Assembly (NCBI GenBank): GCA_051362555.1
Contig: CM120645.1
Location: 9,920,001 to 9,984,000 of the forward strand
Origin: Lingula anatina
Lineage: Eukaryota > Animalia > Brachiopoda
DNA length: 64,000 nucleotides
Direction: 5' to 3'
Shown: positions 14,435 to 18,466 of the stretch, piece by piece
Layout of the letters: the number at the start of each line of letters is the position of its first letter
How positions within the stretch are numbered: the stretch's first letter is position 1
Program-made: the position numbers and the translations under genes
Notes under the pieces: model-generated
Told to the model about the DNA's origin: nothing
What the model saw: the letters and a program-made list of their open reading frames with translations, nothing else
Database searches by the model: none

Positions 14435-16152
14435 ATGGGTTTGAAGAGTTATGAAAACTTTTTAGGCTCTAACTTAACGCTTTCGATAGTTCTCTTCAAA
14501 GACGTAAGAAACCTTTCAGAAGTGAGAAAACTGGTCATTGAAGGAAAGTTTGAGGCAGCGCTTATTAAACCCAGTGTTGTAAGTATTTGGGGAAATTAAT
14601 TGTTTCATAAATCGCCAGTCACGTTTCTTTTTCACGACCATTTGTCACCTTGAAACTTGAGGGTTGATTCAGTACAATTAAATGAATGGCAGAATTACAA
14701 ACGTTTCCTGTTATGCAAATTCGAAATAAATCAATTTTAGCATGTTACCAGTAAACATTATATTTAGCATGATAAATCTAAATATTTTGTTTTGTTTCTT
14801 TAGTAACTACTAGTACTCTCATCTACAAGACACACTGAGGATCACTCTTTTTGAAAATCACACTTTAATGTATGTCTTATATTGTGAATTTTCCCTTATT
14901 GCAATGAAATGTTCAAGAAAGAGAATGCAATACTCGTTTATTCTATTTAACATTATATATTACTGTATATATATATGATTGTATACTATGTTTTAGTATG
15001 TTATGCTTTATGGATACTTCACTACTATTTGTACGAATCAGGAATATTTTAAAAAATGGTAGTTATATTATTAAGATAACATTGAGAAGTCAATAGACTT
15101 ATTGTTAGAAATGGGTATTACTGATTTAAACAGAGCTTACATTTCCACATATCTTTACCTCAATTATTTCCACATTCCATTGCCTTATTTCCAAATTTCT
15201 TAACATTTTCACAGATTTTAACTTTTTTTCCACATTTCACTCCCTTTGCTTTTAGGTTGTGGACCCTTTTCAAGTGCTGGTAGCAGTCAACAAGGCAGTT
15301 CACCTTCACAGTAACAACAAGAAGTATACCAGAACTCTGCATTCAGAAATCTTGTACAGCTTGGCTCCCTCAAAGAATGTAAGTCTGATCAGTGTATATG
15401 ATGGTTAATACATCTAATGATATAATTCAGGTCAAGAGCTATGAGATATTGTATGGTATAAGCTCCAATTAGTTAGTTCTGCAGCTGAACGTGGACGATA
15501 CTGAGTACCAAGAAAGTGAAAAAAAATTGTCAAGATTATATGCTTTAAATTAAAAAAATTGCTGCGCTTATCTTTCACAGATCTCGGACTCCTACAAGAA
15601 GTTTGGTGTCACAGATCAGGAGACTTCAGTGCTTATTGTCTCACTGGCTGAAGAGAGCACCAAGCTTCAAGACTTCCTTAGTGTGATTCAAGGACAACAG
15701 GTGGCGTTGGAGTCCTTACCAGAGTTCACAGATCTGGAGACTGTTAAAAAGGTCAGTAGCATGCTATTTCCAATGAGTGCAGGGTTGCCCGTAATGAAGT
15801 AATAGGGGAAACCAATTCAGAAAGTCCTTAATGATGTAGATGAAAGTTTCAGTTTTAGGGAATGTTTACTTATTTGACAAACAGATTACTTATGCTTATT
15901 TCTTATTACCTTCATGTGTCTGTATATAAATAGCGCTAGATAGCCTCTAGGTGGATTTAAAATAATCTTGTAGAGTGGTCTGTCTAAGAGAGAGACCTTG
16001 ATTGAATTACAGATCTGTGTGATTTTATAGGAATTCATTTTATTCAACCTTTTTTCCAGGTATACAAAATACCAGATATTGAACTCAGTATTGGAACGGC
16101 ATTGGAGGCAGTGGTTAATAGGATTGCCAGCAAGGACATAGTGTCTCTGTAG
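14435..16152 (+). CDS. TPRKB: EKC/KEOPS complex subunit TPRKB/CGI-121, 176 aa (exons 14435-14578, 15256-15378, 15581-15751, 16060-16152); missed by the ORF track
   Basis: Spliced translation [83 protein letters not shown]; all introns GT-AG, phase 0. Confidence 0.93.
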
Positions 16153-16484
16153 CGGAAGGAAAGAAGGAAGGAGAAATACACATAAAGCAGTGACAGACTT
16201 TTTCATTTTGTGTCATATTTACGGCCATAAAAACTGCAGGGTAGACACTGAATTATTATAACTGTCGGCAAGGTTTTGTTTCGTTAGTGAGAGGGACATT
16301 GTAGCAACAAAGGCACCAGTGAAGACACTCCCGTATGAACGAAGCTGTTAATAATAGAGGCATTTGTTAAAAAGACATAAAATTTTCCTTTTTGTTAAGA
16401 TAAACCACATTGTTATTTATTACAGGGATTTTTTTACACTCACTAAGGACAAACACTTGTTAAACGACGCGGACAGTAACAGAC

Positions 16485-16739
16485 ATGGCCTTAAGTCGCA
16501 ATCCGCTCATTGATCGAACACCTCCCATGAAAGGAAGTTTTCCTTTGGATCACGAAGGTGAATGTAAAAAGAAAATGAAGGAATATTTGCGCTGCCTAAA
16601 GAACAATAAGCAGGATAATTCTGCATGCAGGGACGTAGCCAAAGATTATCTGCAGTGTCGCATGGACAAAGATTTAATGGCAAAAGAGGATTGGAAGTCC
16701 TTGGGGTATGGAGACAAGGATGGTGGGAAGGGAGACTAG
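16485..16739 (+). CDS. COX19: Cytochrome c oxidase assembly protein COX19 (twin CX9C), intronless
   Basis: PPMKGSFPLDHEGEC-X9-C...C-X9-CRMDKDLM; AATAAA at ~16989. Confidence 0.95.
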   Translation: MALSRNPLIDRTPPMKGSFPLDHEGECKKKMKEYLRCLKNNKQDNSACRDVAKDYLQCRMDKDLMAKEDWKSLGYGDKDGGKGD

Positions 16740-18466
16740 TTCAAAGTTTGAATATTGGATTTATTGAGTGCATTGTGAAGGAAAAAATTCCAAGTGTTCC
16801 TAGTCGGGAAATTTGGTACATTTGATTTGATTACATAAATTTATTTCCCATTGTATATCTTTTTTAACATTTCAAGAATTAATCAATTTTGCAGAAGGAA
16901 GTTAGTGGTCTTACACCTTGCATATGCTTTCAGGAATTTTTGTCAAAGTTCTGTGATCACCTTTTGCAGATGTAAGGTTATGTACTCTAATAAATAAATT
17001 TCAAAAATATACTCTCAAGGCACTTTTCTGCCAGCTCGGAAACATTTTTTAATTGTTGAGAAGATGTTGACTGGGTTAATTGATAGACTTACATGGTCAA
17101 TGTTATTCATTTCATTTAAAACTGGGGAAAAATTTTGGAATCTTGAAAGAGAAAAGGGAAGACCCAAGATGAGGCTATATTATCTGTTTTTCACTTTATA
17201 GTCTACAATGAAAGAAAAGAATCCAGAGGAACTTAATATTTTACCATCCAAAAAGATCCATTCAGGAAAAGTGGAATGATAACAAGGAGTCCCAAGTTGA
17301 GTGAACCTGAGGAATTTGGGAATGAAATCTGGGCAACGTTCAGGACAAGAAACGTTCAGTAAATAAAATGTGAAGGCCCATTATACAAAAAAAGTTTATT
17401 GTTCAACACAAACAAGTGCCAACTCTTACTCATCATTTCTCTTTAGCAATATTCCCTCGCATGCACTGACGGATGTGTTTTAAACTGTGTACGTATATCA
17501 AATGAAGCTCACCTTAGTTTTAGGATAACAAGCAACACCAATAAGAAATACAAATTTGATTTATAGGTTTGTGTAAACATGCACGTAGACATTATAAATA
17601 TGAAATTGTCTGACATTAACAAATGAACTAATTCCATTGTTTAAGGTTGTCAGCTATATCGACTTCAAATTTGACCAAGAGAACCAAAATAATTCTGGTC
17701 AGTAACAAGAGTTTAATGCTACTATGTAATAAAACATATTAAGCTTCTACACAAAGTCATGAAGAGTACAAACATCAACTTTAACACTGAAAATTACATC
17801 ATCATATATTAAAAAAATAATAAAGTAGCAAAAATTATGAAATAACTAGGTAATTTCCACCCAACTTTCTGGGGCAACCATATCCAGACTTACTAAACAG
17901 ATTTTGATCAAGTCGGTTTTAATGCAAGCTACTGTTTTTTTTCCCCTTTACACTGGTCGTGAAATTATTCGAAGGACACATGAATTTCAGTCCATTACTC
18001 CATTCATATTGTCAAGTCTGATGCTTTTTCCAACTTGAAAAAGTTAATTTTCATTCTTGCCAAATAATTGCAATTCAAAACTTAAAATTCAGTGTGAATA
18101 TGTTGATTAATTCTCAAGCAATATTGAATTCAGTCAATGACTGATAGAAAAAAGTGTAAACATTCTTTAACTGCCCTTCAGTTTGAGAAAAAAGAAAGTC
18201 GCATCCCCTTCATCATATCCAACAAACAATTTGTGTCGCATCAGATCAACTTCCCACATTTAATTTCAAAATCCAACCTGGATGTTTTGCTTGGTGGGGG
18301 AAACTCACTACCGCCAGTATCTACAAGTACCTTCAGATGGCCTACATATAAATTTTCAAATGCTGCAGGTGGCATTCATGTAAAATTGCAAAATTGTCCT
18401 CAAGATGGCGTTAATGTCACATATCGAACTCCCCATCCCAATGTGGCATTACTGAAAATACTACCA

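Follow-up and report, generated by a model that had tools for sequence, protein, structure and literature searches.

Organization of the TPRKB-COX19 locus

The locus raises the question whether two neighbouring genes of Lingula anatina, TPRKB and COX19, are expressed from a single mRNA and, if so, how ribosomes might reach the second reading frame. Both ORFs are intact and conserved and lie in tandem on one strand of the window (the whole analysed stretch of 64,000 nt). COX19 starts 332 nt behind the TPRKB stop codon, as had been noticed in an earlier sequence-only reading of this DNA.

The TPRKB coding sequence is located on the forward strand and consists of four exons: exon 1 (14435-14578; 48 codons; start context GUG-AUG-G), exons 2 (15256-15378) and 3 (15581-15751), which both match the Pfam family CGI-121, and exon 4 (16060-16152), which extends to a TAG stop codon and aligns with the C-terminus of the reference protein P0005. 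Exons 2, 3 and 4 are free of ATG. All introns are of the GT-AG type, and the CDS of 531 nt encodes 176 amino acids. The protein shares 98% identical amino acids with L. anatina XP_013408871.1, and the CGI-121 domain is present in full length (reference protein P0005, PF08617 positions 1-159 of 159, E 4e-44). A second Lingula TPRKB allele differs in 4 amino acids and likewise possesses no internal methionine.

COX19 (16485-16739, forward strand; start context GAC-AUG-G) is intronless and encodes 84 amino acids. Its identity is indicated by a Pfam CHCH match, the twin CX9C motif and the best named matches, which are COX19 proteins; the FPLDH motif occurs at the usual offset in the intact ORF. 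Among the protein matches listed (120 of 133) there was no COX19 of Lingula, and the best match showed 74% identity, although the database searched does contain the Lingula TPRKB. This absence would be expected if COX19 were hidden in an apparent 3' UTR. Independently of this, annotation frequently overlooks small genes with a single exon.

Upstream, TPRKB faces the first coding exon of ALG10 (14032-14205, reverse strand; Pfam DIE2_ALG10, E 2.2e-6), whose exons 2 and 3 also gave Pfam matches. The ALG10 start codon at 14205 (reverse strand) is 229 nt away from that of TPRKB, and the region between both (14206-14434) probably serves ALG10 and TPRKB(-COX19) as a bidirectional promoter. This assignment to a common promoter is based just on the head-to-head spacing and on a CpG peak (30 CpG in 13800-14399 vs 0-5 per 200 nt in 14600-16199). 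A database ORF begins at codon 14405, which may point to an end of the transcript some 30 nt upstream of the TPRKB AUG.

Spacer and polyadenylation signals

The intercistronic spacer (16153-16484, forward strand) has a length of 332 nt, which slightly exceeds the range reported for those fly loci that are exclusively polycistronic (-34 to 319 nt). It is apparently unstructured (fold z-score -0.09) and gave 0 matches in Rfam, so that a structured, IRES-like spacer found no support. A canonical poly(A) signal is located behind COX19 (16971-16998, forward strand), where two TGTA elements are followed by overlapping AATAAA hexamers at 16989 and 16993; only here was a complete poly(A) architecture found. 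Neither AATAAA nor ATTAAA occurs in 16153-16484, in agreement with the earlier claim that the first AATAAA lies after COX19. The accompanying claim that the spacer contains only CATAAA and GATAAA has to be extended: both are present (CATAAA three times) and all variants are weak, but AATACA and AATAGA occur as well. A possible weak proximal poly(A) site (16148-16220, forward strand) comprises TGTA at 16148, AATACA at 16175 or CATAAA at 16181, and a U/GU-rich tract.

Among the AG dinucleotides of the spacer, the one at 16425 most resembles a splice acceptor (candidate site 16411-16425, forward strand); it is located 59 nt before the COX19 start. The pyrimidine fraction of this site is 0.67 vs 0.73-0.87 at the three real acceptors, and the spacer contains no consensus splice donor. 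Fusion of both proteins, or readthrough, was rejected, because the spacer length is not divisible by three and the COX19 start is preceded, at a distance of 7 codons, by an in-frame stop; after splicing to 16425, the frame behind the acceptor also closes within 7 codons. Between 16200 and 16600 the CpG content rises slightly (13 per 400 nt); the CpG o/e of the spacer is 0.82 vs 0-0.27 in TPRKB exons 2-4. As a sign of a promoter this rise is not significant, since 19% of the 400-nt bins of the window equal it.

Depletion of AUG in TPRKB and the spacer

The 531-nt TPRKB CDS contains no ATG beside the start codon (14435) and one out-of-frame triplet at 14451. The latter opens, 16 nt after the TPRKB start, a 4-codon mini-ORF (MKTF*, 14451-14465, forward strand), which might act as a reinitiation shunt. 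The sole AUG of the spacer belongs to an 11-codon ORF (16335-16370, forward strand) with the weak context CGU-AUG-A, which stops 114 nt upstream of COX19; thus, the ORFs of both stray AUGs are short, and neither extends to COX19. The purge postulated in the sequence-only reading is consequently present, and it exceeds chance in Fisher and Poisson tests. TPRKB exons and spacer together have 2 ATG in 860 nt in comparison to 32 in 1187 nt of the TPRKB introns (Fisher P=3.9e-6), and the COX19 ORF contains 9, so that the described richness of COX19 and the introns in AUG was found as well. Because exons and spacer are depleted and the introns are not, it is the spliced RNA to which the constraint applies. 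Taken by themselves, exons 1-3, a region far from any COX19 promoter, have 1 ATG in 435 nt (P=1.3e-3).

Similar results were obtained with six other coding stretches of the window as null (63 ATG in 3066 nt), of which only ALG10 exon 3 has Pfam support, while the others are long stop-free frames that may include intron ends: Poisson P(<=1 in 528 nt) was 2.3e-4 for TPRKB and, with the spacer included, P(<=2) was 3.4e-6. The stricter dinucleotide shuffle gave 28/2000 for the TPRKB CDS alone, 0/2000 for CDS plus spacer and 144/2000 for the spacer alone, the last value being not significant. ATG ranks only second to third among the depleted triplets, and the depletion of CTA equals that of ATG. 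Furthermore, no synonymous purge beyond the demands of the protein itself was detected (0.89 AUG expected, 1 seen).

Comparison with other TPRKB proteins

The amino acid sequence of TPRKB was compared with its relatives. The maximum number of internal AUGs that the protein permits in any frame is 2 in Lingula vs 5-25 in 126 of 126 relatives (mean 14.2; Lingula z -3.4), a statistic that was selected after the data had been seen and for which the relatives are not independent. The profile search covered the best 150 of 1938 matches; from a set of 166 proteins, 39 were dropped due to length or a non-Met start, and 0 of these 39 was free of internal Met. When the relatives were back-translated, at most 1 internal AUG resulted in 60 of 25,200 draws. 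Columns with Met in 27-55% of the 126 relatives read I35, V48, K71 and I168 in Lingula, and the Met-containing motifs KMKTRTL and RMSTKD, which the sequence-only reading gives for human TPRKB, are present in marsupial and bird orthologs.

Complete TPRKB CDSs were available for comparison from six other loci of animal type, which represent four distinct sequence groups with 34-38% GC; each contains 11-15 AUGs, and the purge is thus absent from these orthologs not linked to COX19. COX19 was found beside TPRKB in 0 of 21 distant loci, many of which have short flanks, and 19 of 19 other matches contain 2-6 internal Met. AUG-free orthologs without such linkage had been named as evidence against the bicistronic interpretation. 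Beside Lingula, 5 of the 126 relatives lack internal Met, which speaks against it, yet the three of these five that were tabulated still permit 7-15 AUGs. A Met-free TPRKB is unsupported as a marker of other bicistrons, the crinoid protein permitting 15 AUGs. The Met-free gene of Chromochloris is present in the all-genes sheet only, as far as the accessible supplements of Gallaher 2021 extend.

Proposed translation of COX19

Taken together, the sequence data make it probable that TPRKB and COX19 are located on one mRNA and that COX19 is translated via leaky scanning, probably with reinitiation after the 4-codon ORF. The dicistron of the sequence-only reading is well supported, though indirectly, by the exon-specific purge, by its absence from unlinked orthologs and by COX19 missing from the Lingula proteins listed. 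The simple leaky-scanning picture has to be modified, as the TPRKB start context is not weak. With G at -3 and G at +4 it reaches 0.92 of consensus in fly-cell measurements, and the context of AUG 14451 is nearly equal (0.84, also measured in fly). Since neither AUG is poor, the route probably includes reinitiation downstream of the 4-codon ORF. Predicted context strength is highest for COX19 (1.34), followed by TPRKB (1.14) and the spacer AUG (0.66), according to a fly-based matrix that is not Lingula-specific.

On this model, one capped and spliced mRNA would begin at the promoter that faces ALG10 and end at poly(A) signal 16989. The majority of the scanning ribosomes would use the TPRKB AUG and synthesize TPRKB, and a minority would bypass it, aided by a probably short leader (about 30 nt). 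These ribosomes might simply scan on, but it is more likely that they would first translate the mini-ORF at 14451 and then rescan. In both cases they would traverse about 830 nt of spliced RNA with one weak AUG and initiate at the COX19 AUG, whose context is predicted to be stronger. Under selection for an open path, AUG triplets of every frame could have been lost from the TPRKB exons. The price of this purge would be four commonly conserved Met and all Cys and Trp residues, as well as most His, Tyr, Asn and Asp residues preceding a codon that starts with G. While gene structures, AUG counts and the contrast with the orthologs are observed, it is inferred from the sequence that there is one mRNA, how long its leader is, which route the ribosomes take and that selection caused the purge.

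Alternative explanations

It is rather unlikely that both genes are simply tightly packed, with COX19 transcribed from a promoter of its own (in intron 3 or exon 4 of TPRKB or in the spacer), TPRKB ending at the weak proximal site or using the distal one, and the scarcity of AUG being chance or a relic. The weak poly(A)-like elements at 16148-16220, the CpG rise at 16200-16600 together with the spacer CpG o/e, and the occurrence of Met-free TPRKB among the relatives would fit such an arrangement, and a 5' UTR is itself expected to be poor in AUG. However, it leaves unexplained both the AUG poverty of exons 1-3 and the outlier position of the protein; the CpG rise is common in the window, and annotation would more probably have included COX19 if it had a transcript of its own. 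Division of one pre-mRNA, in which the COX19 5' end is generated by SL trans-splicing or by alternative cis-splicing of a TPRKB donor to 16425, is quite improbable, even if this AG lies suitably upstream of the COX19 AUG and trans-spliced operons are known in other spiralians and in gnathiferans (PMC12460157). Trans-splicing would make a purge of the TPRKB exons needless, and the 16425 site is less rich in pyrimidines than the real acceptors, in a spacer lacking a consensus donor. Moreover, the 2015 Lingula genome paper is silent on trans-splicing and operons, and no brachiopod report of trans-splicing was found in the literature search, within the accessible parts of the texts.

Two further explanations leave the purge without a reason. 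A bicistronic mRNA on which ribosomes arrive at COX19 by reinitiating behind the complete TPRKB ORF, or through internal entry in the spacer, would accord with the fairly strong TPRKB start and the AUG-poor spacer; it is very improbable, because neither process needs AUG-free exons 1-3. Reinitiation of the TURBS type requires a stop-start distance of no more than about 30 nt (PMC10275272) vs 332 nt here, and the unstructured spacer without Rfam match argues against internal entry. That COX19 is an untranslated retrocopy in the TPRKB 3' UTR, with a working gene elsewhere, is suggested by its lack of introns and its absence from the Lingula protein matches listed. This is extremely unlikely, as the ORF is intact with the twin CX9C and FPLDH motifs kept, no other Lingula COX19 occurs among the matches listed, and the purge would not be explained. 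Nothing in the analysis speaks for a functional connection of KEOPS to COX assembly.

Comparison with known bicistronic mRNAs

Wall et al. 2005 reportedly tied translation of second cistrons to first cistrons without in-frame AUGs. In algal bicistrons, AUG is depleted before ORF2 (Dueñas et al. 2025, PMC11892635). The green-algal mRNAs (PMC11892635; Gallaher et al. 2021, PMC7896298) resemble the Lingula locus in combining unrelated housekeeping ORFs, an AUG-depleted ORF1 and inter-ORF region, an AUG-rich ORF2 and an ORF2 context that is stronger, in Lingula by prediction. In contrast, algal ORF1 contexts tend to be weak, which that of Lingula TPRKB is not, and Lingula is an animal with a 4-codon ORF after the start, its single mRNA being deduced from sequence. 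A CGI121/TPRKB/COX19 pair was not found in the accessible algal bicistron supplements (PMC11892635, PMC7896298).

In Drosophila, where twin-CX9C and mitochondrial proteins are over-represented on dicistronic mRNAs, COX19 (CG42496, CG30290 uORF) and Ppcdc are encoded by an all-dicistronic mRNA whose conservation extends from flies to a crab (PMC4528330, PMC2276209). There, too, COX19 itself lies on a dicistronic mRNA, as is proposed here, but fly COX19 is upstream of its partner PPCDC with a gap of 18 nt, whereas Lingula COX19 is downstream of TPRKB with a gap of 332 nt. Human RPP14-HsHTD2 (PMC4705651) likewise combines a small RNA-processing subunit as ORF1 with a mitochondrial protein in the apparent 3' UTR; the genes are different, and the mechanism was uninvestigated according to this review. 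The proposed route is also similar to that of KSHV ORF35-ORF36 (PMC3561293), where ribosomes are diverted by a short ORF located at the start of ORF1 and then rescan over hundreds of nt to ORF2, a process that is blocked by an inserted distal AUG. Unlike in Lingula, this system is viral and its uORF begins upstream of the ORF1 start and overlaps it; the Lingula mini-ORF is situated 16 nt downstream, so that ORF1 must first be leaked past.

Bicistronic arrangements are known but rare in animals, and the TPRKB-COX19 pair is unmatched in the literature searched: in the accessible texts, neither a paper joining both genes nor a Lingula bicistron was found, and both gene names are absent from the examined parts of the 2026 Lingula genome paper supplements.

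Biological implications

It is possible, though doubtful, that the amino acid sequence of a KEOPS subunit was reshaped by an mRNA constraint that lets ribosomes reach the animal's only COX19 via a 4-codon relay. TPRKB would then have lost Met, Cys and Trp and those residue pairs that are able to mutate to an out-of-frame AUG. If this is true, the possible-AUG count would provide a protein-only screen for hidden second cistrons in animal genomes without long reads, and the same screen would find "missing" small mitochondrial genes. A brachiopod case would join the short list of animal bicistronic mRNAs, with a recruitment of COX19 that is independent of the COX19-PPCDC unit of arthropods and places it in the opposite position. 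The lack of this widely conserved factor of cytochrome-oxidase assembly in Lingula protein sets would be explained as well, and the locus would represent an unusually clean and measurable translational constraint that is visible in the protein sequence.

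Gene structures of TPRKB and COX19

TPRKB, the CGI-121 subunit of KEOPS, is encoded on the plus strand by four exons (14435–14578, 15256–15378, 15581–15751 and 16060–16152; 531 nt, 176 amino acids) separated by GT-AG introns. With exon 2 as protein query, the L. anatina protein XP_013408871.1 was found; it is equally long, with only four residues differing (F21Y, L118P, E142D and A160V), and the four-exon structure was thus confirmed. Neither protein contains an internal methionine. For a second TPRKB version in the database (P0025), the first codon (14405) does not encode methionine and lies one codon into the in-frame stretch between the preceding stop and the start; we infer that it is a 5'-open model of a transcript beginning approximately 30 nt before the TPRKB AUG.

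The intronless COX19 gene (16485–16739, plus strand, 84 amino acids) starts 332 nt behind the TPRKB stop codon and was identified by its CHCH domain with twin CX9C motif, by an FPLDH motif at its usual offset, and by best matches that carry the name COX19. Among the 120 listed of 133 matches in a search of 5.8 billion proteins, restricted to lengths of 46–147 amino acids, the closest showed 74% identity and none was labelled as Lingula, while Lingula TPRKB was found in the same database from several sources. This absence is an indirect sign of a single mRNA, as annotation of one CDS per transcript would produce it, but small genes are also missed for other reasons.

Upstream, the ALG10 start ATG (14205, minus strand) lies 229 nt from the TPRKB start in opposite orientation, and a CpG peak spans this head-to-head region. 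The ALG10 start codon presumably lies within a YY1-like AAGATGGC motif (14200–14208, minus strand). A multi-exon gene on the minus strand (18467–29824, start near 29790), which we take to be FAM120-like, approaches the COX19 3' end with its 3' exons from the opposite strand; Pfam assigned no family to it. The exon at 40990–41331 (plus strand), in our assumption similar to the C-terminal region of copines, gave no Pfam matches.

Depletion of AUG in TPRKB and the spacer

The sequence-only reading had described an AUG-poor TPRKB and spacer beside AUG-rich introns and COX19, and the counts bear this out. Past its start codon, the TPRKB CDS contains one ATG in 528 nt (14451, opening the out-of-frame four-codon ORF MKTF*), and the spacer (16153–16484) contains one (16335), opening an 11-codon ORF which stops 114 nt short of COX19; the TPRKB introns contain 32 ATG in 1187 nt and COX19 nine in 255 nt. 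With six further coding stretches from the window taken as reference (63 ATG in 3066 nt), the probability of at most one ATG was 2.3e-4 for the CDS and 3.4e-6 for CDS plus spacer. Exons plus spacer differed likewise from the introns (Fisher P = 3.9e-6), and for exons 1–3 alone P was 1.3e-3. The dinucleotide-preserving shuffle is less generous to the depletion than the coding-stretch null: as few ATG occurred in 28/2000 shuffles of the CDS, 144/2000 of the spacer and 0/2000 of both, and CTA was depleted equally.

As also claimed, the first AATAAA behind TPRKB lies past COX19; it is doubled (16989/16993) and preceded by two TGTA. The spacer holds variant hexamers only, of which CATAAA (16181) could form a weak poly(A) site together with TGTA (16148) and a U-rich tract.

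Comparison with TPRKB orthologs

All 19 other matches of the TPRKB protein search contain two to six internal methionines. From these matches and the best 150 of 1938 profile matches, 127 of 166 proteins were kept as full-length-like, i.e. Lingula and 126 relatives. The relatives have 3.4 internal methionines on average, and five have none (a crinoid, Cyanophora, Chromochloris and two further sequences). In Lingula, four alignment columns which often hold methionine are occupied by I, V, K and I.

The sharpest contrast is the number of AUGs that a protein permits in any frame, counted as Met, as His, Tyr, Asn or Asp before a G-starting codon, and as an A-ending codon before Cys or Trp. It is 2 for Lingula and 5–25 for the 126 relatives (mean 14.2, z -3.4), a statistic picked post hoc on phylogenetically non-independent relatives. 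The crinoid protein (Anneissia japonica, XP_033115268.1) lacks internal Met, Cys and Trp altogether; its sequence permits 15 out-of-frame AUGs, and this Met-free protein is therefore no counter-example in kind.

A count of AUGs in TPRKB orthologs not linked to COX19 had been proposed as a check, and it favours the claim: six complete CDSs from a set of 21 other TPRKB loci (four distinct sequence groups, 34–38% GC) contain 11–15 ATG each. COX19 coding sequence was found at 0 of these 21 loci, many of them with short flanks. In three transcript-like loci an identical 105-amino-acid ORF without Pfam matches lies approximately 1.4 kb 3' of TPRKB on the same strand (L002:1938–2255, L003:1938–2255, L006:2113–2430). 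Since the TPRKB CDSs of these loci are AUG-rich, this ORF probably belongs to a separate unit or to a chimera.

Beyond the protein sequence, no synonymous purge was detected in Lingula (0.89 ATG expected, one seen). CpG o/e in exons 2–4 is 0–0.27. One reason we infer for altered residues rather than synonymous sites is that the safe NAC-G combination holds a CpG, which would decay to AUG if the gene body is methylated.

Proposed access of ribosomes to COX19

We consider it probable that TPRKB and COX19 share a bicistronic mRNA on which COX19 is accessed by scanning. Start contexts were scored with fly-cell data (PMC5838203), so that the values are those of the fly and not of Lingula: 0.92 measured and 1.14 predicted for TPRKB, 0.84 and 1.00 for the AUG at 14451, and predicted values of 0.66 for the spacer AUG and 1.34 for COX19. 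The TPRKB context is therefore not weak, which argues against plain leaky scanning as the full explanation. In the model that we favour, a short leader would let a fraction of the ribosomes bypass the TPRKB AUG; many of these would initiate 16 nt downstream, translate four codons, rescan approximately 830 nt holding one weak AUG and initiate at COX19. Given a bicistronic mRNA accessed by scanning, the chances that the four-codon ORF takes part are perhaps even. In KSHV ORF35-36, short-ORF reinitiation is reported across hundreds of bases and is blocked by a distal AUG (PMC3561293), and in green algae the sequence ahead of ORF2 is described as depleted of AUG and as sensitive to the insertion of further AUGs (PMC11892635).

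A separate COX19 promoter, for which the putative weak poly(A) site of the spacer would leave room, is unlikely. Trans- or alternative splicing is less likely still; an acceptor-like sequence occurs at 16411–16425, 59 nt 5' of the COX19 start, and an intron ending there would excise the sole spacer AUG, but no consensus donor was found in the spacer. Access through an IRES, or by reinitiation once all 176 codons of TPRKB have been translated, is very unlikely, since neither route requires AUG-free early exons; moreover, TURBS-type coupling is reported to be limited to about 30 nt or less (PMC10275272), and the spacer is unstructured by fold test and without Rfam match. That the intronless COX19 is a silent retrocopy is the most improbable of these readings.

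Relation to known bicistronic mRNAs

In Drosophila, 159 bicistronic pairs are reported, with gaps of -34 to 319 nt at exclusively polycistronic loci (PMC4528330); bicistronic mRNAs are also established in green algae (PMC11892635) and at a few human loci, e.g. RPP14-HTD2 (PMC4705651). COX19 itself is already known from such a unit, the fly CG42496-Ppcdc, described as all-dicistronic with an 18-nt gap (PMC4528330; PMC2276209). The CG30290 uORF, reported as conserved as far as a crab, contains the COX19 SFPLDH motif according to a by-eye match to the supplement sequence (PMC2276209). In the fly COX19 lies upstream of Ppcdc, whereas in Lingula it lies downstream of TPRKB, and a literature search found no published report of the TPRKB-COX19 pair. 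The TPRKB-COX19 feature is real and most likely represents another case of the already known kind of bicistronic mRNA, with the putative single mRNA as its defining feature.
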